From positions 2,514 through 66,513 of the forward strand of contig JBBAJN010000002.1 in assembly GCA_040404045.1 (NCBI GenBank): a stretch of 64,000 bases of DNA. The letters are read 5' to 3'. Within the stretch, counting starts at the first letter, position 1. Each line of letters begins with the position of its first letter. This DNA is from Chitinophagaceae bacterium (GTDB lineage Bacteria; Bacteroidota; Bacteroidia; Chitinophagales; Chitinophagaceae). A program made the position numbers and the translations under genes. The notes under the pieces are model-generated. The model ran no database searches. It saw only the letters and a program-made list of their open reading frames with translations, and was not told the origin of the DNA. Below, piece by piece: positions 5,214 through 17,412 of the stretch.

Positions 5214-5561
5214 ATGATTCAAATTCTCACATATGGCCAAAATAAGAAGATGTCGGAGGCCGAAGCCTGTCTCTGGAACAACCTGTTGAAAGACAGAAAG
5301 ATGCTGGGATTCTCGTTCGACAGGAGGATTGAGGTGCTTGATCAGAATGCTGCGTTTCTGTGCCTTGAGCTGCGGCTGATCATTGAGATCGACTCCAGCG
5401 GGGGTTATAAAAAAGAAGAAAGCAGAGAAAAATCTGAAATGGAATTCCTTTTCAGGTTAGGAGGATACAGTGTACTCCGTTTCACAGAGTCAGAGATTCT
5501 CAATAACATGGAAAAGGTAAAATCAATGATCAAGGAATGGATCGTGCTCAATGGAAATTGA
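5214..5561 (+). CDS. DUF559 / Vsr-like endonuclease-domain protein, apparently catalytically degenerate
   Basis: Family pattern MSEAEACLW...GFSFDR...FLCLELRLIIEID...GGYSVLRFTESEILNN. The usual xDF Asp and the E-x-D-G-x-x-H His are not present. Confidence 0.65.
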   Translation: MIQILTYGQNKKMSEAEACLWNNLLKDRKMLGFSFDRRIEVLDQNAAFLCLELRLIIEIDSSGGYKKEESREKSEMEFLFRLGGYSVLRFTESEILNNMEKVKSMIKEWIVLNGN

Positions 5562-6827
5562 TCACATCCGTCCTTTCATCATCATGTTCCAGTACAGCCA
5601 TGGTAAACCGTATTTTTTCAACACCCACATGCTCCACCGTTCTTTAGAGGTATCTACAAATTTGGAGAGCAAGGGATCGCTATCCCTCACATTATCATAC
5701 TTGAATTCGCAGAGCAACATCTTACCGTAACCGGTAACTATGGGGCAGGAGGAATATCCTTCATAGACTTTTTCGCTCAACGGCAGGCTCTGCAGGATGC
5801 GGAGGACGTTTTCCACCACGATGGGCGCCTGCTTGCGTATCGCTGCTCCGGTTTTTGCCGTTGGCAAGGCGGCAGAATCACCCAGGCCAAACACGTTCTT
5901 ATAGTGCGGGTGCTGCAGGGTGTGAATATCAACATTCATCCAGCCTTTGTTAGGTCCTTCCTGATGCGCAAATGGTGACTGCTTAATAAAGTCCGGCGCA
6001 CTCTGCGGAGGAGCGAGATGCAGCATGTCGTAGTGCATAGTAATCAGATTATCGCCGCCCAGTTTCTCACCTAGTTTGACATCAAGGTCAGCTTCAGATC
6101 TTTTTGTGTCGGGCTTGATATATTGAAAGGTGATCTCCTGCTTAACAGGGTCAATACTTATGGGTTTATAAAACGGTTTGAAGTTTACGCGCTTCTTTTT
6201 CAGAATACGGTTCAACTCATCAGCAAATACCTTGGTACCAAAGATCACGGTACCCGGTGTTGCAAATACCACATTTGTTTTATCCCTCACGCCCGACTTC
6301 TCAAAATACTCTTCTGCCAGGTACATGATCTTTTGCGGAGCGCCACCGCAGCGTATGGGTGTAGCGGGTTGGGTGAAGATGGCGTTACCTCCCTTGAAAT
6401 CCTTCAGGATCCTGAATGTCTTCTCTGGATCGATATAGTTGCTGCATACCACATCTGTTTTCAATGCTTCACGTAATCCGGGCATGGCGTCAATATCCAT
6501 TTGAATACCTGCGCTGATGATCATGGCGTCGTAAGATATATCCCCACTGCCCTTTGTAGCTACTTGATTTGACTCGGGGTCAAAGCTTGTTACATAGTCC
6601 TTGATCCATTCAACACCAGGCGGGATGAGTTTCTTTTCATCCTTCTTTGTATCGTTGAAATTAAAAGCACCCGCGCCAACAAGCGTCCATGCTGGCTGGT
6701 AGTAATGCGTTGTATTGGGTTCAACAATCGCGATTTTGAGATTCTTATTTTTTCTGCGCAGCTGTGCAGCTGTCATGATACCTCCGGTTCCGCCACCGAC
6801 CACCAGGACATTGTAATGGGATTTCAT
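5562..6827 (-). CDS. sqr: Sulfide:quinone oxidoreductase (heterotroph-type SQR)
   Basis: Rossmann VVGGGTGG, HYYQPAWTLVGAG, cysteine motifs CGGAPQK and YSSCP, GDSAALPTAKTGAAIRKQ; sulfur-cluster context. Confidence 0.88.
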   Translation of the reverse strand: MKSHYNVLVVGGGTGGIMTAAQLRRKNKNLKIAIVEPNTTHYYQPAWTLVGAGAFNFNDTKKDEKKLIPPGVEWIKDYVTSFDPESNQVATKGSGDISYDAMIISAGIQMDIDAMPGLREALKTDVVCSNYIDPEKTFRILKDFKGGNAIFTQPATPIRCGGAPQKIMYLAEEYFEKSGVRDKTNVVFATPGTVIFGTKVFADELNRILKKKRVNFKPFYKPISIDPVKQEITFQYIKPDTKRSEADLDVKLGEKLGGDNLITMHYDMLHLAPPQSAPDFIKQSPFAHQEGPNKGWMNVDIHTLQHPHYKNVFGLGDSAALPTAKTGAAIRKQAPIVVENVLRILQSLPLSEKVYEGYSSCPIVTGYGKMLLCEFKYDNVRDSDPLLSKFVDTSKERWSMWVLKKYGLPWLYWNMMMKGRM

Positions 6828-6846
6828 AATGATGTATTTGATACCT

Positions 6847-6891
6847 GCAAGATAGAAAGGGGAGCGGTGTTAAATAGTGACAGATATCACA
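6847..6891 (-). promoter_or_regulatory. sqr promoter: CRP-like box AGTGA-CAGATA-TCACA (6876-6891) and -7 element TATCTTGC (6854-6847)
   Basis: Near-palindromic TGTGA-N6-TCACA match 22 nt from a Bacteroidota -7-type element; same geometry at three other cluster promoters. Confidence 0.75.
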
Positions 6892-6908
6892 ATACAATCA
6901 GCCAATAC

Positions 6909-8729
6909 TTACCGGAACTGATAATCGTATCCTTCGAGCTGGGTGAGTAAGGTCTGTGGTTCGTCGGTGGCGGTCATACGGCCTTCGATCTTAGGAGCAA
7001 CCGGTGAATGCGCCGCCAGGTATTCGCGGATGATGGGATGAAGTGAGTAGCCGAGCCTGGTGGGATTTAAAACGTTTTCGATTCTGCAAATCATATCATC
7101 AGGATCTCCATCACGCTCACAGGCCACAATACGATACATTTTACTTTTATCAAGGGGTTGGCCCTGCACTTTTACCCAATTCACGCGCTTACCTTTTTCA
7201 TTGCCAGCGGTAATGTTCACCTCCATTCCTGAATACCTCACCACCCAACCACCAAATCTTTCAGATGCTTTCTTTGCAAAAACATTATGCAATTCCTTTT
7301 CCAACCATTGCAACAATTTCTCGCCAGTGATTTCGCCCGACTTAGCCTCGCTGTCCACTGGCAACATGTTCCATAAAAAATCATTGGTGATCTCGCGGGT
7401 ACCTTTTTTATCATCTACCACCAGGGGAGGACAGAACCTGAATCCATTGCTCAATGCAATGTCCGGCTTGAACTTCCAGAAGATCGCATCCGTGATCAGG
7501 TTGTCCATGGTATTTTCCAGCACAAAATACCTGACCAGGGTGTTCTTTGTGCTGCCGATCACTTTATCCAAATCTTTCTTAAATGGTTCCCTGGCTTTTC
7601 TAACCAATTCAACCATCTCAGGATCTGGCTTATACTTCAACGGATCCACTTCCAACAGTTTGTACTGGGTCTCCTTCACCTTTCCGTCTTCAATGATGAC
7701 GTCAAGTTTGGCTACAAAAGAACCAAATGCGCCCGGCTCCGTGACTTTGGTATATTTTGCCTCTATGGGTTTCCTTACCCGCTCGTGGGTATCTGCTCCA
7801 AGAATGAAATCAGCTCCTTCCACCGCCGGGTTGTTTCCAAGGTCCAGCTGCTGTGCTATCCCCAGGTGAGTGACCAGAAACACCATGCTACATTTTTCAT
7901 AATCCCTGAGATAACGAATGTACTTAGCCACATTGGTCTCAGGGTGTGTGAATTTTATTCCAGCTGAATAGGCGGGAGATTGCCGTCTGGGGGTTAGGGG
8001 ATCATTGTATCCAATAAACCCGATCTTGGTCTGGCCAAAATGCGTGGTCCAGTAGGGCGGGAACATCATTTCGCCTTTTCGTTCGGTATCGTCATGGAAC
8101 ATATTGGCGCAGATCTTCTGGGCCTGGTAACCGCCCATGTCTTTCATGAGGTTCTCCTTGCCATATACTACTTCCCAGTTTCCCGGCAGGATCAGATCGT
8201 AGTCGATATTATTAATGAGGGGAACAATGGCCCGGCCTTCGGTAAGGGAAGCCACGCCAGAACCCTGGAAGCAATCGCCCCCATCAATGATCAGGGTGTT
8301 TGCCGGATTTTCCGCTTTCAAAGTTCTCAGCATGGTCTTCAGCGTTGCGAAACCACCGAGTTTCCGATACGTTGCTTTGCCATTCTCCCAGAAAAACTCG
8401 TCGTGCGTGTTCAGCTGTGCGTGGATATCCGCGGTATGCAACAGGGTGATCCGCTGCACTTTCCCCTGCGCCAGCGCGGAAGATTTCTTCCATGACGCTT
8501 CATCTGACAGCTCGTTCCCCTGAGCAGAAGCGATCTGCGGTATGCCGGCCATACCCAGGCCAGCGAGCGACATCTTTTTCAGAAAATCCCGACGATCTGT
8601 GCCGGGGTCACGGCCATGATCCGGGTTCGTTCCCTCGATTCCCTGCTTCTCTACGTGAGCTTGTTTAGAATTCGCAAGATCCGTCCCATGGAGAGTGATG
8701 TTATCGTTTGCATGATGGTGCTGACACAT
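6909..8729 (-). CDS. Tat-exported SoxB-like thiosulfohydrolase (5'-nucleotidase/metallophosphoesterase fold)
   Basis: Twin-arginine signal TDRRDFLKK. Metallophosphoesterase motifs LHTADIHAQL, DGGDCFQGS, PGNWEVVYG, GADTHER, and SoxB-like SNGFRF instead of nucleotidase NxGGIR. Sulfur-gene context. Start uncertain. Confidence 0.75.
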   Translation of the reverse strand: MCQHHHANDNITLHGTDLANSKQAHVEKQGIEGTNPDHGRDPGTDRRDFLKKMSLAGLGMAGIPQIASAQGNELSDEASWKKSSALAQGKVQRITLLHTADIHAQLNTHDEFFWENGKATYRKLGGFATLKTMLRTLKAENPANTLIIDGGDCFQGSGVASLTEGRAIVPLINNIDYDLILPGNWEVVYGKENLMKDMGGYQAQKICANMFHDDTERKGEMMFPPYWTTHFGQTKIGFIGYNDPLTPRRQSPAYSAGIKFTHPETNVAKYIRYLRDYEKCSMVFLVTHLGIAQQLDLGNNPAVEGADFILGADTHERVRKPIEAKYTKVTEPGAFGSFVAKLDVIIEDGKVKETQYKLLEVDPLKYKPDPEMVELVRKAREPFKKDLDKVIGSTKNTLVRYFVLENTMDNLITDAIFWKFKPDIALSNGFRFCPPLVVDDKKGTREITNDFLWNMLPVDSEAKSGEITGEKLLQWLEKELHNVFAKKASERFGGWVVRYSGMEVNITAGNEKGKRVNWVKVQGQPLDKSKMYRIVACERDGDPDDMICRIENVLNPTRLGYSLHPIIREYLAAHSPVAPKIEGRMTATDEPQTLLTQLEGYDYQFR

Positions 8730-8780
8730 GTGAAGAGGGGTTTTGAAATGAATGAGAGGCGGGTAGTTTTTTCGCCCGTT

Positions 8781-9737
8781 TTACCTGGCTTTTGGCCACG
8801 GGCCATATTTATGCTGTTGTTCACTCAGGCTATCTGCATAAGGACCAAATGGATGGTCGCGGGGCTTTTTGGAAATATCCGGCCAGTCTTTCGACAGATC
8901 CTTGGTTGGCCGCGGCATGGAGTTGATATACGCGGCTACATCCCAGGACTGTTCATCGGTAAGTACCTGGTTCTTATAACTCGCCGTGCCAAAAGGCATG
9001 TTGTACTTCACAAAACCGGCTAAACGGGACAGGCGGTAAAGCCCTGCCCCCACATTATAACTGCCCTTACCCCAAACAGGCGGATATACGTACCCGAACC
9101 CTTCCGCGTTCGGTTGTCCTTCTCCGTTAGCACCATGACAAACCTTACACTGCTGGGTATACACCAATTCACCCTTTGCCGGATCAGCAGGTCTGTCAAG
9201 CGGTTTTAGATCCGGGATACCTGAACCCCTGGGTTTTGTTTTCGCGGGGATCTCATCGCCCACCCAATGCATGTAGGCCACGATGGCTTTCATCTCCTTA
9301 CTGTTGGTATCCAGGGCCTTCCCGTTGAGGCTTCTTTCCATGCAATCGTTCACCCGCTTCGGGATGGTTTCGATACCGCCGCTCCTGGCCCTGAACATGG
9401 GATAATTGGCCACTACGGCACTATAGTTATTCCCATATGGCAGGGTGCCTGCGCCCAGATGACAGTTCTGGCAATTCATGCCATTGGTCAGTGGTGCTAC
9501 CTTCCCTTTTGGACCAAGGTAATAGGACGTATTTGAAATGAGCTCATAACCGTAATTCGCCAGCGTATCCTCTGGTTTGATCTGATACTTGTTCCAGCCC
9601 TGCCATGGCGCTTCCTCAGGCTGGGCAAGCGATGGCACATCAGCCTTGTTGTTACAGGCGGGGATCATGAGCGCTGTAACGCCATACAACCCAGCGAGCA
9701 AAAGAGGACCTATTCCATATTGCAGGAGCCTTGTCAT
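8781..9737 (-). CDS. tsdA: Thiosulfate dehydrogenase / tetrathionate reductase TsdA, diheme cytochrome c, probable lipoprotein
   Basis: Two CxxCH motifs (CQNCH, CKVCH), active-site Cys in RVNDCMERSLNG, PPVWGKGSYNVGAG, heme-2 ligand region KYNMP, WDVAAY. Lipobox-like IPA/C after a hydrophobic leader. Confidence 0.82.
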   Translation of the reverse strand: MTRLLQYGIGPLLLAGLYGVTALMIPACNNKADVPSLAQPEEAPWQGWNKYQIKPEDTLANYGYELISNTSYYLGPKGKVAPLTNGMNCQNCHLGAGTLPYGNNYSAVVANYPMFRARSGGIETIPKRVNDCMERSLNGKALDTNSKEMKAIVAYMHWVGDEIPAKTKPRGSGIPDLKPLDRPADPAKGELVYTQQCKVCHGANGEGQPNAEGFGYVYPPVWGKGSYNVGAGLYRLSRLAGFVKYNMPFGTASYKNQVLTDEQSWDVAAYINSMPRPTKDLSKDWPDISKKPRDHPFGPYADSLSEQQHKYGPWPKAR

Positions 9738-10265
9738 TTAGTTAGGAAGTTTATCCCTGAAATAGCCATAGACCCAGGTACCGGCTATAGCGCTGACCAG
9801 AGAAACAATGATCACGGTAGCGCCCGTGCCGATCTGCGCAAACAGTGGTCCTGGGCAAGCACCCGTCATTGCCCAACCCAGTCCAAATATCAATCCGCCA
9901 TAGACCTGGCCTTTGTTGAACTTCTTATCGGGGATAACGATCTTTTCACCATAAATGGTTTTGATATTGAATTTCTTGATCAACAATACAGAGATCATGC
10001 CCACGGCTATGGCAGAGCCGATCACCCCAAACATGTGAAAGCTTTGCAGGCGGAACATCTCTTGTATCCTGAACCAGGAGATCACCTGTGACTTCACCAG
10101 CGCAATACCAAAAAGGATGCCCATGATGAGATATTTCATCAAATGCCACCAGGGTTGGTGTTCTTCCATATTGTTCACACACTGCGCATCCAGCGACCGC
10201 GTCTCAAAGTCTGTATTCTCTTCAAACTTTTTCGCTTTTTCCAAAAATTCTGTAGTAGGCTGCAT
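9738..10265 (-). CDS. YeeE/YedE-family sulfur-compound transporter half (DUF6691-like)
   Basis: KSQVISWFRIQEMFRLQSFHMFGVIGSA and GWAMTGACPGP; 4-5 TM segments. Start uncertain. Confidence 0.85.
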   Translation of the reverse strand: MQPTTEFLEKAKKFEENTDFETRSLDAQCVNNMEEHQPWWHLMKYLIMGILFGIALVKSQVISWFRIQEMFRLQSFHMFGVIGSAIAVGMISVLLIKKFNIKTIYGEKIVIPDKKFNKGQVYGGLIFGLGWAMTGACPGPLFAQIGTGATVIIVSLVSAIAGTWVYGYFRDKLPN

Positions 10266-10275
10266 CTGTAATTTT

Positions 10276-10839
10276 TTAGAGTTTCATAATGAAGGGCAGG
10301 ATCAGGTTTGCCATAAGGAAGCCGCCCGCCATAAAACAACAGGTTGCTATCACAGAAGGCCACTGCATACTGGATATACCCATGATCGCATGACCAGAGG
10401 TGCAACCACCGGCGTATCGTGTTCCAAATCCAACCAGGAAACCACCCACCACCATCAGGATAAATCCGCGGGCAGTGAATAAGGCTGGCCAGTTGAAGAC
10501 TTCAGCGGGAACCATGTTCCGATAGTCTGTCACCCCATAACTGCTCAGCTCACTGGCCAAGGCAGGGTTCACGTGAACCGCTTCGGGATCGGACAACAGG
10601 AAAGTGGTCAGCACAGCGCCAACGATAATGCCAGCCACAAAGAGCAGGTTCCAGGCTTCTTTTTGCCATTCATATTTGAAGAAAGAAATGTTTGCCGGGA
10701 TACAGGCAGCGCAAACATGCCTGAGCGAGGACGAGATGCCAAAGGTTCGATTACCCAATATCAGCAGGATGGGAACCGTTGAACCGATGAGGGGACCTGC
10801 CACATACCATGGCCAGGGATGCTTTAACCATTCTAACAT
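10276..10839 (-). CDS. YeeE/YedE-family sulfur-compound transporter half
   Basis: PWPWYVAGPLIG, FGISSSLRHVCAAC, FLVGFGTRYAGGCTSGHAI. Confidence 0.88.
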   Translation of the reverse strand: MLEWLKHPWPWYVAGPLIGSTVPILLILGNRTFGISSSLRHVCAACIPANISFFKYEWQKEAWNLLFVAGIIVGAVLTTFLLSDPEAVHVNPALASELSSYGVTDYRNMVPAEVFNWPALFTARGFILMVVGGFLVGFGTRYAGGCTSGHAIMGISSMQWPSVIATCCFMAGGFLMANLILPFIMKL

Positions 10840-10859
10840 ATGATTGAATTTATATGACT

Positions 10860-10905
10860 ACAAAATACCTAATAATTAACTAAGGGGAAAGTGACGATTA
10901 TCACA
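10860..10905 (-). promoter_or_regulatory. yeeE-yeeE-tsdA-soxB promoter: CRP-like box AGTGA-CGATTA-TCACA (10890-10905) and -7-like TATTTTGT (10867-10860)
   Basis: 9/10 match to TGTGA-N6-TCACA, overlapping the porin stop codon and 23 nt from the -7-like element. Confidence 0.72.
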
Positions 10906-12325
10906 GACGATAGTTAATGATAAAGTTAAAGTGATGCATATTCACCTTATTGATGATCAGGCGGGCGTTTTCCGGGCTTTCAGCAGCTGGCTTATAAGTA
11001 TACAGCAATTCCATCTGAAGGCCTTTCCAGAATCCGGTGAAATGGTAGTTGAGATCAATCAGGAATTGGTGATAGGAAGGCATGGCATATTTATTCAACG
11101 CCACATTGCCGGTCCCCGGGAGTTTATAATAACCGTAACTGATCTCAGACCGAAAGTTTTTTTTCCATTCCTGGTGCAGGTTCACCGAAACTGCATGAAC
11201 ATCGCCGGACCCTTCGTTCCTTTCCCTTTTGATGAAGGTATACATGGGCTCACGGCCCCACTCGCGCGGGAACAGGAAGCGTCCATCAGCGGTGATGCGG
11301 GTATAGTTCAACAGCAGTTTCGACTTCATCACCTGGTAACCCAGACGGCCAGAGATCACGTTCGATTTTTGCCGGGGATCAAAATAGGTTTTCGACAACG
11401 AATCATTCCCCCCACCGTTGATAGCGTTCTGGTGGATGTATTGCAGGCCTGCCAGCAAAGCGGTTTTGGACGATAATGCCCATTTAGCATCAGACTGAAG
11501 CATCACGGTATTAAAGATATTGTCCGTGTAGTATTCCCAGCCTTGTATCGTCCAGTCCGGCTTCAACTCATACGTGAGGCCTAGTACACCTACTCCAGAC
11601 GAATTCAGGTTAGCTTTGTAGTTACTTCTCTTGCCATCGGTTCCGAATCCCGAGGGGTAAATACCCATAGATTCATCCACTCCAAACCATCTTACTGTTC
11701 CTCTTGGTGATATTTTTGAGATCCATCCACCCTGTAGCCTTAGTCGCGGTATCTCATGCATATCGATCCAAAGCCCTTGCTCGCCCGTAGGCCGCATCCT
11801 GCCATCCTGGGGATTGATGAACGGCGTGTTGATGTTTTGCTTACCGAAGGTCAATGAGGATTTCCTGTAATGATATCTGATGTTGAAATCTTCCAGCCTG
11901 TCCATATCATTCTTATTCTCAAAATCTTCCATATCGAACTGGCCCACTTCGTAGCGGTTGAATGCTCCGGTAGCAGGGTCGGGTTTTGCGAGGTCAGAAG
12001 ATGCCAGGTTCCAGACAAAAAAACCACCTACAGTAAATTGGAAGCCCTTGTAAATACCGGTCTGGTATTTGAGTCCGCCACCAAAAGCATAGGCATAGTA
12101 ATCAGTCAGTTCTTTTTCATTCTGAGTAGTCATGTAGTACAACCTCAGGTGCAAATCCATTTCACTGCCCTTTTTCAGCGCATAAGTCAGAGTAGTGGTG
12201 TCCTGCGGCTGGCCTTCGCGATGCGCATGCCCGCCGCCGTCAGCCACAAAAGGCCCCGGGTTTTGTGCCCATGAAAAAAATGGCAGACACAGCCATGCGG
12301 ATATGAACAATAGAATGACCTTCAC
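10901..12325 (-). CDS. Outer-membrane beta-barrel porin (OprD-like)
   Basis: Signal peptide (GTG start, ..FSWA/Q), alternating amphipathic beta-strand pattern, C-terminal FNFIINYRL. Confidence 0.7.
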   Translation of the reverse strand: MKVILLFISAWLCLPFFSWAQNPGPFVADGGGHAHREGQPQDTTTLTYALKKGSEMDLHLRLYYMTTQNEKELTDYYAYAFGGGLKYQTGIYKGFQFTVGGFFVWNLASSDLAKPDPATGAFNRYEVGQFDMEDFENKNDMDRLEDFNIRYHYRKSSLTFGKQNINTPFINPQDGRMRPTGEQGLWIDMHEIPRLRLQGGWISKISPRGTVRWFGVDESMGIYPSGFGTDGKRSNYKANLNSSGVGVLGLTYELKPDWTIQGWEYYTDNIFNTVMLQSDAKWALSSKTALLAGLQYIHQNAINGGGNDSLSKTYFDPRQKSNVISGRLGYQVMKSKLLLNYTRITADGRFLFPREWGREPMYTFIKRERNEGSGDVHAVSVNLHQEWKKNFRSEISYGYYKLPGTGNVALNKYAMPSYHQFLIDLNYHFTGFWKGLQMELLYTYKPAAESPENARLIINKVNMHHFNFIINYRL

Positions 12326-12392
12326 GATCTGGGTGATTAGATTTTATTGGCCTGGAGAAAATTTGCCGTCTTCGGTAGCCGGCTCCTTATAT

Positions 12393-12420
12393 GGAAGGTT
12401 AAAGAAGGAAGGTTAAAGAA
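12393..12420. repeat. Perfect 14-bp tandem duplication GGAAGGTTAAAGAA x2
   Basis: Read directly at 12393-12406 and 12407-12420. Confidence 0.9.
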
Positions 12421-12444
12421 AGGGGGAAGTAGAAACATCCCCCT
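12415..12444 (-). terminator. Intrinsic terminator downstream of the MBL-rhodanese gene
   Basis: Minus strand AGGGGGA-tgtttctact-TCCCCCT followed by TTCTTT. Confidence 0.75.
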
Positions 12445-12475
12445 GTTTAATCCTCAAACACACTAATGAAAAAAC

Positions 12476-13891
12476 TTATAGTAACGTAGACGGGCAAACG
12501 TAATCAGTCACTTTGAACTTGCCCGACTCCTTGATCGCCTTGAATCCGCCCTTAACGTCAACGAGGTTATCGTAGCCCCTTGCACGAAGGGTGGAGATAA
12601 AGATCATTGACCTGTATCCGCCTGCGCAATGCACATAGTAGGTTTGGTTCTTATTGATCTGCTGCATGCTGTCGTTGATGAAATCCAACGGTGCGTTCTC
12701 AGCATCCACAATATGTTCTGAATCATATTCACTTTTCTTTCTTACATCGAGCACATTCGCTCCCTGGGCGACCAGTCCCTGCAGTTCATCTACTTCTACC
12801 TGCTGGATCATATCCACTTCCTGGCCGGAACGCTGCCAGGCATCGAAGCCTCCTTCGAGGTAGCCTATACAAAAATCATAGCCCACCCTCGCCAGCCTTG
12901 TCACTACTTCCTCTTCACGCCCGGGTTCTGTGATGATCAGGATCTGCTGCTTGATATCCGGGATCATGGCACCCACCCAAGGTGCGAAGCTTCCGTCGAT
13001 GCCGATATTCACACTGTTGGGAACAAAGCCTTTGGCAAAATCCTCTGGCTTCCTGGTATCCAGGATCAGGGCTCCGGTTTCATTGGCTGCCGCTTCAAAT
13101 GCTGCGGGTGAGAGTGCGTGCTGGCCGCGCTTCAAGACATCCTTGATACTGTCGTACCCCTGGATGTTCATCAACACATTCATTGGGAAATAGGAAGGTG
13201 GCGCTACCAGACCGGTCAGTACTTCTTTCTTAAATGCATCCCTGGTCAATGCGGGGTTAAGCGCATAATTGGTTGATTTCTGGTGGCCAAGGGTATCCGT
13301 AGTTTCTTTGCTCATGTTCTTGCCACAGGCGCTACCGGCACCGTGCGCAGGATACACGATGATATCGTTTGCAAGCGGCATGATCTTGTTTCTCAGGGAA
13401 TCATATAAATGCCCTGCGAGAATATCTTCTGTGAGTTCTGCTTTTACTTTTTGGGCGAGGTCAGGACGGCCCACATCACCGATGAAGAGGGTATCTCCTG
13501 AGAACAAACCGATTTCCTTACCCTGCTCATCGATCAGCAGGAAACAGGTGGATTCCATGGTATGTCCGGGTGTATGAATCACCTTGATCAATACATCGCC
13601 TAATCTGAGGATCTCGCCATCGGCAGCAATGTGCGCATCAAAGGATGGTGCTGCAGTAGGGCCATACACAATGGTTGCGCCGGTTTCTTTAGCGAGGTCA
13701 ATGTGTCCGGAAACGAAATCAGCATGGAAGTGGGTTTCCAATACATACTTGATGACGGCACCATCTTTCTTAGCCCGCTCGATGTAAGGTGCTACTTCGC
13801 GCAGCGGATCGATGACCGCAGCTTCGCCCTTGCTCTCGATGTAATAGGCTCCCTGTGCCAGACATCCTGTATAGATTTGCTCTACTTTCAT
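12476..13891 (-). CDS. Persulfide dioxygenase-type MBL-fold hydrolase fused to rhodanese domains (CstB-like)
   Basis: ETHFHADFVSGH, HTPGHT, FSGDTLFIGDVGRPDL, PAHGAGSACGK; C-terminal rhodanese DVRKKSEY...VHCAGGYRS. Start 13891 or 13900. Confidence 0.9.
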   Translation of the reverse strand: MKVEQIYTGCLAQGAYYIESKGEAAVIDPLREVAPYIERAKKDGAVIKYVLETHFHADFVSGHIDLAKETGATIVYGPTAAPSFDAHIAADGEILRLGDVLIKVIHTPGHTMESTCFLLIDEQGKEIGLFSGDTLFIGDVGRPDLAQKVKAELTEDILAGHLYDSLRNKIMPLANDIIVYPAHGAGSACGKNMSKETTDTLGHQKSTNYALNPALTRDAFKKEVLTGLVAPPSYFPMNVLMNIQGYDSIKDVLKRGQHALSPAAFEAAANETGALILDTRKPEDFAKGFVPNSVNIGIDGSFAPWVGAMIPDIKQQILIITEPGREEEVVTRLARVGYDFCIGYLEGGFDAWQRSGQEVDMIQQVEVDELQGLVAQGANVLDVRKKSEYDSEHIVDAENAPLDFINDSMQQINKNQTYYVHCAGGYRSMIFISTLRARGYDNLVDVKGGFKAIKESGKFKVTDYVCPSTLL

Positions 13892-13911
13892 AAGAATCAT
13901 TTTACGGTTTA

Positions 13912-13956
13912 CAAATTTCTGAAGTTGAAAGCTCTTTAACTATGACATTTGTCACA
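13912..13956 (-). promoter_or_regulatory. MBL-rhodanese promoter: CRP-like box TATGA-CATTTG-TCACA (13941-13956) and -7-like GAAATTTG (13919-13912)
   Basis: Same 22-nt spacing as the sqr and tauE promoters; the -7 element has one mismatch. Confidence 0.62.
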
Positions 13957-13971
13957 GAATGAGATAATATT

Positions 13972-14772
13972 TTACTGGAAGAATAACTCCTTGACAATGA
14001 TGTAGAGACCCATCACCATTACAAACCAGCCGAACCCTTTTTTGAGCGTCGTTGGATTGATTTTTCTATTAAAGGAGTTTCCTATAAATAGACCTATGAT
14101 GGCCAGTGCAGTTACGCTGAGCAGTAGCTTCCAATCCATCACCGTATGCGACATATCTCCCAAAAAGCCGATCAGGGATTTCATGGCGATGATCAACAGG
14201 GAAGTACCCACGGCCTGTTTCATCGGCAGTTTGCTGAGGATCACCAGGGCGGGAATGATCAGGAATCCGCCGCCAGCGCCCACCAATCCAGTCAGGCCGC
14301 CCACCAGGACGCCTTCCAGCATGATCAGGGGATAATTGAACTCCTGTGGCTGCACCGCCTCCTTATCCATGGCGGTAGCTTTGTCGCGGATCATACTGAT
14401 AGATGCTGCGGTCATGAGCACCGCGAACAGGAGCATGATCACCAGTGGTTTAGAAAATTCAAACGATCCGATGGTCATGATGTGTTCCGGAATGGCCGGT
14501 ACGATCCATTTGCGGGTGGCATAGACGGACACGATCGAAGGAATGCCGAAAATGATGGCCGTCTTCATGTTCACCATACCCTCCTTATACTTAGGGAAAA
14601 CGCCAACCAGACTGGTTGCGCCAACAATGAACAGGGAATAAGCCGTTGCCAAAACCGGATCGATATGGAACAGGTAAACCAAAACAGGCACGGTGAGGAT
14701 GGAACCTCCTCCTCCGATGAGTCCCAGGGAAATGCCAATGATCAGTGATGCCAGGTATCCAATTATTTCCAT
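13972..14772 (-). CDS. Sulfite exporter TauE/SafE family
   Basis: LGLIGGGGSILTVPVLVY, GLVGAGGGFLIIPALV, KQAVGTSL; about 8 TM segments. Confidence 0.92.
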   Translation of the reverse strand: MEIIGYLASLIIGISLGLIGGGGSILTVPVLVYLFHIDPVLATAYSLFIVGATSLVGVFPKYKEGMVNMKTAIIFGIPSIVSVYATRKWIVPAIPEHIMTIGSFEFSKPLVIMLLFAVLMTAASISMIRDKATAMDKEAVQPQEFNYPLIMLEGVLVGGLTGLVGAGGGFLIIPALVILSKLPMKQAVGTSLLIIAMKSLIGFLGDMSHTVMDWKLLLSVTALAIIGLFIGNSFNRKINPTTLKKGFGWFVMVMGLYIIVKELFFQ

Positions 14773-14775
14773 GAT

Positions 14776-14821
14776 GCAAAGCTAACGCGACCGATTTCCC
14801 TGAACGGTGACAGAAATCACT
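14776..14821 (-). promoter_or_regulatory. tauE promoter: CRP-like box GGTGA-CAGAAA-TCACT (14806-14821) and perfect -7 element TAGCTTTG (14784-14777)
   Basis: 22-nt spacing between box and -7; the -7 element ends 4 nt before the ATG. Confidence 0.75.
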
Positions 14822-14830
14822 AAAGAGGGA

Positions 14831-15460
14831 TCATATCAGAACCTCAATGCTGTTGCGGTGGAGGGCTACCATTTGGTTTCTCTCCATTTTCTTAAGCAGA
14901 CGGGAGATGACTTCCCTCGAAGAGCTAAGATCATGGGCGATCTGCTGGTGGGTGAGATTAAGGTGTTTGCCCAATTTATCAGTCTGCTGTTTGAGATACC
15001 ACTCCAGCCTTTCGTCCATGTTCTTGAAAGCGATGTTATCGATCACCACCAGCAGTTCTTCAAATCTTGAACGATAGGTCTCCAATACGAAATAATACCA
15101 GCCTTTATGATGGGTCATTAATTCATCCATGTACCGTATGGGGATCATCAGCACTTCTGTTTCCTCCACCGCCATGGCCATGATCTGGCTGGCCTGGTTT
15201 CGGGTGGCGCAGATCATGCTCAGGGCGCAGGCGTTACCCCCTTCCAGAAAATACATGAAGAATTCACTGCCTTCGTCGCTTTCCCTGTACAGTTTTACTT
15301 TGCCACTGATGATGAGCATTGTAGCCTTGAAGTACTGGCCCGTCTTCATCATTATTTCCCCTTCACCAAAAGTTCTCCGTTCAGAAATACCGGCAATAAA
15401 AGCAGCCAGCTTTGAATCAAAAATCGGGAATATTTTCTGAAGTTCTTCGGGAGTGTCCAT
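14831..15460 (-). CDS. Crp/Fnr-family transcriptional regulator
   Basis: cNMP-like beta-roll (IISGKVKLYRE...YFLEGG), C-helix MDERLEWYL, HTH LTHQQIAHDLSSSREVISRLL; Cys pair in NACALSMICA. Confidence 0.93.
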   Translation of the reverse strand: MDTPEELQKIFPIFDSKLAAFIAGISERRTFGEGEIMMKTGQYFKATMLIISGKVKLYRESDEGSEFFMYFLEGGNACALSMICATRNQASQIMAMAVEETEVLMIPIRYMDELMTHHKGWYYFVLETYRSRFEELLVVIDNIAFKNMDERLEWYLKQQTDKLGKHLNLTHQQIAHDLSSSREVISRLLKKMERNQMVALHRNSIEVLI

Positions 15461-15543: not shown

Positions 15544-17412
15544 TCAACGGCCCATATAAACCATCAGGATCTGGACGTCGCTTGGGTTGATCCCAGAGAT
15601 CCTCGATGCCTGACCCAGTGTGCGCGGTTTGATGCGGTTCAATTTTTCACGCGCTTCATTGCTGATCGCCTGTACTTTTTTATAATCGAAGGCTGCTGGT
15701 ATTTCCAGTTCTTCCAGTTGGCTCATCCTGGAAACCAGTTCTTTCTCTTTACCGATATAGATATCGTATTTCACTTGTATCTCTGCCTGTTGCAGGTGAT
15801 CCCTGCTTTCCTGCCCGAGCGCTTTGTTCACGGTAGGAATGTGGGCCATCAGTTCCTCTAATGAAATATTTGGTCGGAGTACGATCTGCCCCAGCTTTTG
15901 CTTTTGGGTAAGTCCTGCTGATTCTTTGGACTCCAGGAATGCATTGGCTTCTGCTGGGTCAACCGTCAGTTCGGCCATGATCTTCTTGATCCTTTCCACG
16001 GCATCCTGCTTAGCAGTGACGGCCTCCATCCGGTCTTCTTTTGCCAGTCCCAGATCAAAACTACGCTTCGTGAGGCGCATATCGGCATTATCCTGCCGAA
16101 GAAGGGTCCTGTATTCGGCCCTGCTTGTAAACATCCTATAAGGCTCCTCAGTGCCTTTACTGATCAAATCGTCGATCAGCACCCCAATATAGGCCTCACT
16201 TCGCTTCAGGATCAGTGGTTCCTGTTCCCTGACTTTCAGGTGAGCGTTCATTCCGGCCATTAGTCCCTGGCAGGCAGCCTCTTCATAACCGGTGGTCCCG
16301 TTGATCTGTCCAGCAAAGAACAAATTAGCTAACTGCTTGGTTTCCAATGAGTAATGAAGTTGGGTGGGCGGAAAATAGTCGTACTCAATGGCGTATCCCG
16401 GCCTGAACATCCGGCAGTTTTCAAAACCCGGGACCCGCCTCAGGGCGGCAAACTGAACGTCCTCAGGAAGAGAAGTTGAAAAGCCGTTTACATAGATCTC
16501 GATGGTATTCCAGCCTTCCGGCTCTACAAACAGCTGGTGCCTTTCACGCTCCGCAAACCGATTGATCTTGTCCTCTATGCTGGGACAATACCGGGGGCCT
16601 ACGCCTTCGATTCGCCCTGCATACATCGGACTTCTGTCGAACCCTGTTTTTAGGATGTCGTGCACCGACTGGTCCGTATATGTGATCCAACAACTCCTTT
16701 GTTCTGAAGGCTTTATTCTTTCTATGTCCTTGTAAGAAAACCCACTGATCTCCTCATCACCTTTCTGCTCCTCCATTTTTGAATAGTCCAACGACCGTCC
16801 ATCTATCCGGGGCGGTGTGCCAGTTTTAAGCCTGTCGCTTTCAAACCCTAATTCAAGAAGTTGCTCGGTAATGCCGGTTGCTGCCTTCTCGGCCATCCTT
16901 CCTCCGCCAAACTGCTTTTCCCCAATGTGTATCAAGCCGTTAAGAAAGGTTCCATTGGTCAGCACCACGGCTTTTGACTCAATATGATGCCCCAAGCCTG
17001 TGATTACACCCTGGCAACGACCGTCTTTAACAATTAGCCCATTGACCATATCCTGGTAAAAGTCAATGTTCGGTGTGCCCTCAAGCATTTCCCGCCACCT
17101 CTGGGAGAACAGCATCCGGTCACTTTGTGCCCTTGGACTCCACATGGCGGGGCCCTTGGACTTGTTGAGCATCCGGAATTGGATCATGGTTTGATCCGTC
17201 ACGATGCCGGAATAGCCTCCCATGGCGTCAATCTCCCGCACAATCTGGCCCTTTGCAATACCACCCATGGCTGGATTACAGCTCATTTGGGCAATGGTCT
17301 GCAGATTCATGGTCACCAGCAAAACTTTACTCCCCATGTTGGCTGCTGCTGCTGCGGCTTCGCATCCAGCATGGCCTGCACCTACTACTATGACATCGTA
17401 TCTCGGAAACAT
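15544..17412 (-). CDS. mnmG: tRNA uridine-5-carboxymethylaminomethyl(34) synthesis enzyme MnmG (GidA)
   Basis: VIVVGAGHAGCEAA, MSCNPAMGGIAKGQIVREIDA, GPRYCPSIEDK, FFAGQINGTTGYEEAA, FTSRAEYR. Confidence 0.98.
   Translation of the reverse strand: MFPRYDVIVVGAGHAGCEAAAAAANMGSKVLLVTMNLQTIAQMSCNPAMGGIAKGQIVREIDAMGGYSGIVTDQTMIQFRMLNKSKGPAMWSPRAQSDRMLFSQRWREMLEGTPNIDFYQDMVNGLIVKDGRCQGVITGLGHHIESKAVVLTNGTFLNGLIHIGEKQFGGGRMAEKAATGITEQLLELGFESDRLKTGTPPRIDGRSLDYSKMEEQKGDEEISGFSYKDIERIKPSEQRSCWITYTDQSVHDILKTGFDRSPMYAGRIEGVGPRYCPSIEDKINRFAERERHQLFVEPEGWNTIEIYVNGFSTSLPEDVQFAALRRVPGFENCRMFRPGYAIEYDYFPPTQLHYSLETKQLANLFFAGQINGTTGYEEAACQGLMAGMNAHLKVREQEPLILKRSEAYIGVLIDDLISKGTEEPYRMFTSRAEYRTLLRQDNADMRLTKRSFDLGLAKEDRMEAVTAKQDAVERIKKIMAELTVDPAEANAFLESKESAGLTQKQKLGQIVLRPNISLEELMAHIPTVNKALGQESRDHLQQAEIQVKYDIYIGKEKELVSRMSQLEELEIPAAFDYKKVQAISNEAREKLNRIKPRTLGQASRISGINPSDVQILMVYMGR

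Follow-up and report, generated by a model that had tools for sequence, protein, structure and literature searches.

How might a heterotrophic bacterium of the family Chitinophagaceae oxidise sulfide and thiosulfate to sulfate without Sox carrier proteins? The question is raised by a stretch of 64,000 nucleotides, hereafter called the window (contig JBBAJN010000002.1 of assembly GCA_040404045.1, positions 2,514 to 66,513 of the forward strand), in which nine genes, all on the minus strand, are tightly packed at 5562-15460, the interval delimited by an earlier note made from the DNA sequence alone. The genome tested (3.41 Mb in 219 contigs, 98.3% complete) belongs to an organism known only as a metagenome-derived genome. 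Our analyses indicate that the region probably represents a single regulon, with which a heterotrophic member of the Chitinophagaceae would turn both sulfide and thiosulfate into sulfate independently of Sox carrier proteins. The cluster is real and conserved, and the predicted functions of its genes make it a Bacteroidota case of the published SoxYZ-independent thiosulfate oxidation, joined in one predicted Crp-controlled regulon to the heterotrophic sulfide route of SQR, a CstB-like dioxygenase and TauE. The genes are as follows, in the order of their coordinates in the window.

5562..6827, minus strand: SQR of type II, similar to the mitochondrial SQOR (match to human SQOR 6oi5; Pfam Pyr_redox_2)
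6909..8729, minus strand: SoxB-like dinuclear metallohydrolase, predicted to be exported by the twin-arginine translocation (Tat) system (TIGR04486, motifs and tree)
8781..9737, minus strand: predicted TsdA thiosulfate dehydrogenase, a dihaem cytochrome c (match to A. vinosum TsdA 4wq7; motifs)
9738..10265, minus strand: half-size YeeE/YedE membrane protein (DUF6691, PmpAB-type; Pfam DUF6691 and Sulf_transp)
10276..10839, minus strand: second half-size YeeE/YedE partner, encoded by the first gene of the yeeE-yeeE-tsdA-soxB-like unit (Pfam Sulf_transp, 63 bits)
10901..12325, minus strand: outer-membrane porin of the OprD family (Pfam OprD, 58.7 bits)
12476..13900, minus strand: predicted cytoplasmic, CstB-like persulfide dioxygenase (PDO) with two rhodanese domains (Pfam Lactamase_B and two Rhodanese domains)
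13972..14772, minus strand: TauE/SafE exporter, predicted for sulfite or a sulfur oxyanion (Pfam TauE, 156 bits)
14831..15460, minus strand: regulator of the Crp/Fnr family (Pfam cNMP_binding and HTH_Crp_2)

Pfam, NCBIfam and PDB sequence searches confirmed all nine assignments, eight same-strand sulfur genes and a Crp/Fnr gene, as the earlier note had listed them. The junctions leading from the first yeeE gene through the second one, tsdA and the soxB-like gene to sqr measure 10, 0, 51 and 81 nt, and the gaps of the cluster at 5562-15460 leave no gene-sized room. The first three of these junctions and a Crp-like box upstream of the unit support the proposal that tsdA and the soxB-like gene form one operon with the YeeE halves.

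The absence of soxY, soxZ, soxXA and soxC, first claimed for the cluster and its gaps, was extended by searches of the whole genome. SoxY gave no match with either TIGR04488 or PF13501, SoxZ nothing beyond a 13-bit noise match and SoxX only sub-threshold generic cytochromes, while the lone match to SoxA was TsdA itself, at 37 bits. No SoxC or other protein of the sulfite-oxidase fold (PF00174, which covers the SorA and SUOX types) was found in the genome either. In lacking SoxYZ, SoxXA and SoxC, this genome differs from those with a canonical Sox system. SoxY was also absent from all 19 sampled Bacteroidota that carry the hydrolase. A profile scan of the genome with TIGR04486 retrieved the window hydrolase, at 251 bits, as its sole SoxB-like gene. 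Thus, with neither Sox proteins nor an enzyme of the sulfite-oxidase fold, the TsdA/SoxB-like pair is the only candidate for making sulfate among the systems searched, which did not include SoeABC and adenosine 5'-phosphosulfate reductase.

What kind of enzyme is the SoxB-like hydrolase? Its best model is TIGR04486, which describes canonical SoxB, although its score of 268 bits lies below the cut-off of 550 bits. Nucleotidase models score lower (PRK09419, 103 bits against a cut-off of 1646; UshA, 98.7 bits against 600), and solved structures were matched with 94 bits for SoxB of Thermus (2wdc) and 79 bits for an E. coli nucleotidase (3ivd). Pfam recognises only the Metallophos and 5_nucleotid_C domains, and the orthologues are labelled bifunctional metallophosphatase/5'-nucleotidase by NCBI. 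Such annotations would suit a common 5'-nucleotidase or phosphoesterase of the periplasm whose gene happens to lie between genes of sulfur metabolism, an explanation that we nevertheless regard as highly improbable in view of the model scores, motifs and gene context of the protein.

To place the protein, 1.8 billion cluster representatives were searched, which yielded 229 clusters at E values below 1e-30, and a quick maximum-likelihood tree was computed with 71 full-length representatives. This phylogeny against SoxB and 5'-nucleotidases had been put forward as a check in the earlier note, and it placed the window protein outside both, in a SoxB-like group of 40 sequences that is split from canonical SoxB and nucleotidases taken together with a support of 100 in the Shimodaira-Hasegawa-like approximate likelihood ratio test (SH-aLRT). 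The members of this group score between 154 and 346 bits with TIGR04486, compared with 401 to 772 bits for canonical SoxB proteins. The sampled members on the nucleotidase side mostly have nucleotidase models as their best matches; one of them, P0216, is best matched by the SoxB model, at 223 bits.

The metal-binding motifs of the window hydrolase are intact in the motif alignment. Motif III reads GNWE, in contrast to GNH[DE] in nucleotidases and xHWE in canonical SoxB, and motif V reads ADTHER rather than the GHTHD of canonical SoxB. The C-terminal pocket comprises SNGFRF(C)PP, SNGFRFCPP in the window protein, and FGGWVxR, the counterparts being SPGFRWG and QGGDMxR in canonical SoxB proteins and NSGGIR in nucleotidases. 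The residues of the SoxB-type pocket are kept, namely the Trp of GNWE, GFR and GGxxxR, and in these residues the enzyme resembles canonical SoxB (Thermus thermophilus 2wdc/4uwq), with which it also shares the two-domain dinuclear metallohydrolase fold and predicted Tat export, a twin-arginine motif (DRRDFLKK) and an ASA-Q cleavage site being readable at its N-terminus. It differs from canonical SoxB in its identity of only ~20%, its separate clade, its GNWE and ADTHER motifs, an additional C-terminal Cys-pair motif (ACERxGDPxDxxCR) and the lack of an insertion of ~35 residues after motif I. On these sequence grounds, the window hydrolase is not a canonical SoxB protein but belongs to a separate clade with hybrid motifs in its predicted active site.

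An AlphaFold2 model built from a 95-sequence alignment, with a predicted local distance difference test (pLDDT) score of 85.7, had 2wdc as its top fold match (template modelling scores of 0.73/0.82, 20% identity). As nucleotidase structures score nearly as well in the fold search, the fold alone does not decide between SoxB and nucleotidase, and it is the motifs and the gene context that do. The replacement of the catalytic His in GNH[DE] of nucleotidases by Trp and that of NSGGIR by SNGFRF are both SoxB-like traits, and no nucleotidase model exceeds 103 bits, compared with 268 bits for the SoxB model. Moreover, linkage to tsdA and other sulfur genes is conserved in many families and even on a plasmid, and in one relative the hydrolase is fused to a DsrE domain, all of which argues against a bystander nucleotidase.

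Two further features of the hydrolase were considered. A carrier cysteine of its own (C153 or C433) as a family-wide trait was rejected, since these Cys residues are conserved only in the Bacteroidota clade. The stretch N-terminal to the twin-arginine motif contains Cys in 81 of the 92 orthologues (loci L026-L124) in which an RRxF[LIM] motif could be recognised. It is Cys/His-rich, with CxC or CxCxxC, often accompanied by His; the window hydrolase (8600-8729) has only MCQHHH, followed by an insert of ~40 residues. To our knowledge, no role has been assigned to such a Cys/His motif in a Tat signal.

The protein encoded next to it, at 8781-9737, aligns with TsdA of A. vinosum (4wq7/4wqc, E = 4e-45) over residues 83-278, which include both haem domains. 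It harbours two CxxCH motifs, CQNCH and CKVCH, and the Cys ligand of haem 1 is found in RVNDCMERSLNG. The distal residues of haem 2 are Asn-Met, in KYNMPFG, in contrast to Lys-Met in the A. vinosum enzyme. The N-terminus has a lipoprotein-like signal or anchor. With two haems, His/Cys ligation of haem 1 and Met at haem 2, the gene has the sequence features expected of tsdA, and its product is predicted to interconvert thiosulfate and tetrathionate. The Asn-Met arrangement at haem 2 is that of Campylobacter jejuni TsdA, an enzyme biased toward tetrathionate reduction.

The genes around this pair supply a predicted sulfide branch. SQR has human SQOR 6oi5 as its closest solved structure (352 bits, E = 6e-104, residues 3-419), and the motifs RCGGAPQK and SSCP were read in its sequence. 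The dioxygenase-rhodanese protein gave full-length alignments to the PDB entries 3tp9 (239 bits) and 3r2u (219 bits) and also matched ETHE1 (4chl); its active-site Cys lies in HCAGGYRS. We call it CstB-like on account of the full-length match to 3r2u, which we take to be S. aureus CstB. No signal peptide was seen in the sequences of the dioxygenase and SQR. A type II SQR, a dioxygenase-rhodanese and TauE are encoded together, as expected for the predicted heterotrophic SQR-PDO(CstB)-TauE route and as in the cst operon of S. aureus, whose dioxygenase also has two rhodanese domains. Unlike that operon, the window cluster has a Crp/Fnr-type regulator instead of CstR, lacks CstA and is coupled to the TsdA/SoxB-like pair, the YeeE pair and a porin.

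The two YeeE proteins have 175 and 187 residues and match partial ranges of the Sulf_transp/DUF6691 profiles. Published PmpA and PmpB proteins are of ~130 residues, and half-size YeeE relatives have been reported to take up zero-valent sulfur (PMC11582611). Although longer than these, the adjacent YeeE halves fit a PmpAB-type transporter and are predicted to form a heterodimeric sulfur importer. The OprD-like porin, which has a signal peptide, is probably an outer-membrane channel for sulfur anions.

Two more PDO-rhodanese paralogues are encoded elsewhere in the genome (contigs C65:4805-6280 and C134:1769-3163), with 70% and 49% identity to two copies found on a Runella plasmid described below. 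An open reading frame (ORF) of 101 codons adjoins the C134 paralogue, and no second sulfur cluster was obvious around either paralogue in the unannotated ORF listing.

Are these genes expressed together? A scan of 11 kb for TGTGA-N6-TCACA with at most one mismatch returned three boxes, each inside a promoter gap, while by our arithmetic fewer than one would be expected by chance. A fourth box, with two mismatches, was read in intergenic sequence. The four boxes are the following.

6876..6891, minus strand: Crp-like box TGTGATATCTGTCACT, upstream of sqr (pattern scan, one mismatch)
10890..10905, minus strand: Crp-like box TGTGATAATCGTCACT, upstream of the yeeE-yeeE-tsdA-soxB-like unit (pattern scan, one mismatch)
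13941..13956, minus strand: Crp-like box TGTGACAAATGTCATA, upstream of the dioxygenase-rhodanese gene (pattern scan, one mismatch)
14806..14821, minus strand: Crp-like box AGTGATTTCTGTCACC, upstream of tauE (read in intergenic sequence, two mismatches to TGTGA-N6-TCACA)

We therefore predict that four units, including the yeeE unit with tsdA and the soxB-like gene, are controlled by the linked Crp-type regulator. Scans of the region for sigma-70 promoters and terminators gave results at chance level and were not used. The regulator has two Cys residues, C78 and C84, in GGNACALSMICATR. Among 37 cluster-linked orthologues, C78 is kept in 33 and C84 in 31, down to 30% identity. This conservation makes the regulator a candidate thiol-based sensor of sulfane sulfur.

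Taken together, the genes suggest the following scheme. SQR would convert sulfide to sulfane sulfur, and the dioxygenase-rhodanese would turn persulfide into sulfite or thiosulfate, the product being exported by TauE. In the periplasm, TsdA would combine two molecules of thiosulfate to tetrathionate, whose terminal sulfonate (or that of another S-sulfonate) would be hydrolysed to sulfate by the SoxB-like enzyme. The leftover sulfane sulfur or thiosulfate would come back in through the YeeE pair and be oxidised again. This flow from TsdA through the SoxB-like enzyme, YeeE and PDO to TauE is the one that the earlier note had proposed, and it is the best-supported reading of the cluster. The accompanying claim of novelty has to be abandoned, as E. 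flavus sets a precedent.

Indeed, Zhang et al. (ISME J 2020; PMC7608252) described E. flavus 21-3, which lacks a Sox complex and has a thiosulfate-induced cluster coding for TsdA, three proteins with SoxB domains annotated as nucleotidases and a metallo-beta-lactamase-plus-rhodanese dioxygenase. Knockout of tsdA stops thiosulfate use, and knockout of the soxB gene D0Y83_01365 leads to accumulation of tetrathionate, while zero-valent sulfur is not formed and sulfate is reduced in amount; oxidation of the sulfur is the task of SdoA and SdoB in this organism (PMC7608252). Later work treats the route from TsdA to SoxB via tetrathionate as established (PMC12345210). The pathway is thus already known, and the concept being published, the window does not represent the discovery of a new one. 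Nor is the gene pair new to the phylum, contrary to what had been supposed: in addition to the knockouts in E. flavus, Table S5 of the same study includes two Bacteroidetes, Hymenobacter sp. PAMC 26554 and Maribacter sp. T28, with tsdA and soxB and with soxYZ given as 'NO MATCH' (PMC7608252).

The likeness to E. flavus extends from gene content (TsdA, a sub-threshold SoxB labelled metallophosphatase/5'-nucleotidase by NCBI, a metallo-beta-lactamase-rhodanese dioxygenase in the cluster, no soxYZ) to the proposed order of events, from thiosulfate to tetrathionate, then to sulfate and zero-valent sulfur, and on to sulfite. In contrast, E. flavus is an alphaproteobacterium in which SQR was reported to be absent, and it has three SoxB-like paralogues, of which one is needed, whereas the window has a single soxB-like gene. 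The window further adds SQR, the half-size YeeE pair, the OprD porin and TauE, all in one predicted regulon with its own Crp-type regulator. The proposed hydrolysis of tetrathionate after a thiosulfate-oxidising enzyme is also reminiscent of TetH (TTH) in the S4-intermediate pathway of acidophiles. TetH of acidophiles is a beta-propeller protein and unrelated to the window enzyme, which has a metallophosphoesterase fold and occurs in neutrophilic heterotrophs.

How widespread and how constant is the module? When 400 Bacteroidota genomes were sampled evenly, orthologues of the hydrolase (at least 45% identity) were found in 18; in the window's own family, only three of about 22 sampled genomes had one. 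A species scan with one genome per species was seeded by a closer alignment, a diverse alignment of 14 sequences being too divergent, and it retrieved a relative in 404 species genomes. Chitinophagaceae, Sphingobacteriales (Daejeonella, Pelobium), Cyclobacteriaceae, Flavihumibacter and Lacibacter cauensis make up the best 80 of these 404, and lakes and wastewater are the source of many of them. In 64 of these 80 closest loci, tsdA lies directly upstream of the soxB-like gene on the same strand. The pairing, whose conservation across Bacteroidota the earlier note had wished to see checked, therefore holds. Six of the eight sampled Bacteroidota carriers (by the same identity threshold) without an adjacent tsdA have one elsewhere in the genome. 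In two Daejeonella loci (L059 and L061, ~11.7-12.2 kb), a second SoxB-like paralogue, 26% identical, follows right behind the main one; these tandem genes recall the multiple paralogues of the E. flavus cluster.

We then clustered the neighbours of the hydrolase gene in 98 related loci. TsdA is the most frequent one (75 loci), followed by the two YeeE halves (50 each), PDO-rhodanese (49), TauE (42), Crp (35), the porin (33) and SQR (18). These counts bear on an explanation in which thiosulfate or a small S-sulfonate is itself the substrate of the hydrolase, with thiosulfate and water giving sulfate and sulfide, the latter being recycled by SQR; TsdA would then serve for overflow or as a tetrathionate reductase. 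The position of sqr directly downstream of the soxB-like gene in the window is in line with this idea, as are the free thiosulfate bound in crystals of Thermus SoxB (2wde), the Asn-Met haem 2 of the window TsdA in place of Lys-Met in A. vinosum, and the existence of a sister subclade that has no tsdA and keeps PDO-rhodanese, which makes thiosulfate. However, it is tsdA that is the most conserved neighbour (75 of 98 loci, compared with 18 for sqr); the soxB mutant of E. flavus accumulates tetrathionate; and the oxygen-dependent dioxygenase in the cluster fits an oxidative use. Direct cleavage of thiosulfate thus appears unlikely to be the function of the hydrolase in the window.

The related loci revealed other partners. 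In 27 of them, the soxB-like gene has beside it, in most cases within about 100 nt, a gene for a secreted protein of the DsrE family in which a Cys is conserved, and one to three secreted single-domain rhodaneses are encoded in 34. One metagenomic protein (P0371) is a fusion of SoxB-like and DsrE domains. These observations raise the possibility that the SoxB-like enzyme uses a protein carrier other than SoxYZ. The Cys of a periplasmic DsrE-like or rhodanese protein would react with tetrathionate or thiosulfate to a Cys-S-thiosulfonate, which would then be hydrolysed as SoxB does on SoxY; in the window organism, this carrier would be encoded outside the cluster. A chemical precedent is known, as DsrE3A and TusA of Metallosphaera cuprina react with tetrathionate to form Cys-S-thiosulfonates (PMC4175335), the type of substrate that SoxB hydrolyses on SoxY. 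Unlike the secreted DsrE-like proteins encoded in the 27 related loci, the M. cuprina proteins are cytoplasmic, archaeal and linked to Hdr-like complexes, and the window cluster has no DsrE-like gene.

A candidate for such a carrier is encoded in the same genome, on contig C1 (103.5-104.2 kb; L126:1210-1815). It is a secreted DsrE-family protein of 201 residues with the motif FVVCGQT, unlinked to the cluster. However, no orthology to the cluster-linked DsrE-like proteins was detectable by BLASTP (E = 0.22). The window cluster and its nearest relatives contain neither DsrE-like nor secreted rhodanese genes, and 31 loci, the window included, carry tsdA with neither of the two. In addition, C153 and C433 of the hydrolase, which might have served as carriers themselves, are not kept across the wider family. 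We consequently consider a protein carrier unlikely for the window, though an alternative to be taken seriously, and favour free tetrathionate as the substrate in this case, given the lack of partner genes in this cluster and its nearest relatives.

Several points nevertheless weigh against the scheme with free tetrathionate. DsrE-like and/or secreted rhodanese genes are found near the hydrolase gene in 45 of the 98 loci, and a sister subclade pairs the hydrolase with a DsrE-like protein and a periplasmic PDO-rhodanese without tsdA. In this subclade (of Hyphomicrobium and Planctomycetes type), the gene order is PDO-rhodanese with a Tat signal, hydrolase and secreted DsrE-like protein. Both facts suggest that the true substrate may be a protein-bound thiosulfonate. 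The modelled hydrolase is ~20% identical to Thermus SoxB, with nucleotidases almost equal to SoxB in the fold search. The evidence for the hydrolase step is confined to genetics and stoichiometry in E. flavus, and the function proposed here is transferred by analogy from E. flavus SoxB D0Y83_01365, of which the window enzyme may or may not be an orthologue. As about half of the related loci add secreted DsrE-like or rhodanese partners, the carrier-free pathway of the earlier note suits the window cluster as judged from its genes, yet it may not hold for the enzyme family as a whole.

Two loci of this sister subclade without tsdA (L129:6361-10209 and L131:4518-9089) contain what is apparently an all-periplasmic module, with a SoxB-like protein that has a Sec signal. 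In L131, hydrolase and DsrE-like protein form a single fused polypeptide, and a gene for a single-domain rhodanese follows.

A broader view of the family can be formulated tentatively, although we think it unlikely to be right. The hydrolases would form a distinct and widespread family (Bacteroidota, Planctomycetota, Alphaproteobacteria, Bacillota, Armatimonadota). Their ancestral partner, a DsrE-like Cys protein that is secreted and in some cases forms a fusion with the enzyme, would act as a SoxYZ-independent thiosulfonate carrier. The lineage of the window would be a stripped-down version that uses free tetrathionate from TsdA, and its Crp regulator with Cys78 and Cys84 would be a new kind of sulfane-sulfur sensor.

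The module also appears to travel. Plasmid pRUNSL04 of the cultured strain Runella slithyformis (NC_015705.1: 8648-21542; 44.7 kb; locus L124) bears it, with genes for TauE, two PDO-rhodaneses, TrxA, two methyltransferases, TsdA, a DsrE-like protein, the SoxB-like hydrolase, an OprD porin and the YeeE pair. Its presence on a plasmid fits the patchy distribution and suggests mobility. In the window, the flanking genes have no link to sulfur; they code for an AcrB efflux protein, a glycosidase similar to glycoside hydrolase family 63, a DUF559 protein, MnmG, a CAP-domain protein and YbeY. The module is directly adjoined by mnmG (15544-17412), as it is in 19 related loci, which suggests a preferred insertion site in Chitinophagaceae, and the DUF559 gene (5214-5561, plus strand) forms its other border.

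What the present analysis adds to the published concept is a hydrolase clade apart from canonical SoxB, its pairing with tsdA, the absence of SoxY in carriers, the Runella plasmid, and the DsrE-like and rhodanese partners. Standard annotation misses the pathway because its key enzyme is labelled 5'-nucleotidase by NCBI and scores below the SoxB cut-off. We offer a simple annotation rule instead, namely a protein of the SoxB-like clade together with tsdA and no soxYZ. Cultured carriers of the module are available among Lacibacter cauensis, Flavihumibacter species, Daejeonella oryzae and Runella slithyformis. The host of the window cluster is a freshwater-type member of the Chitinophagaceae, and lakes, wastewater and soils harbour heterotrophic Bacteroidota in abundance. 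If the proposed function is correct, such bacteria would be unrecognised sulfur oxidisers, equipped with a compact, mobile module for converting sulfide and thiosulfate to sulfate that needs neither Sox nor Dsr nor an enzyme of the sulfite-oxidase fold.

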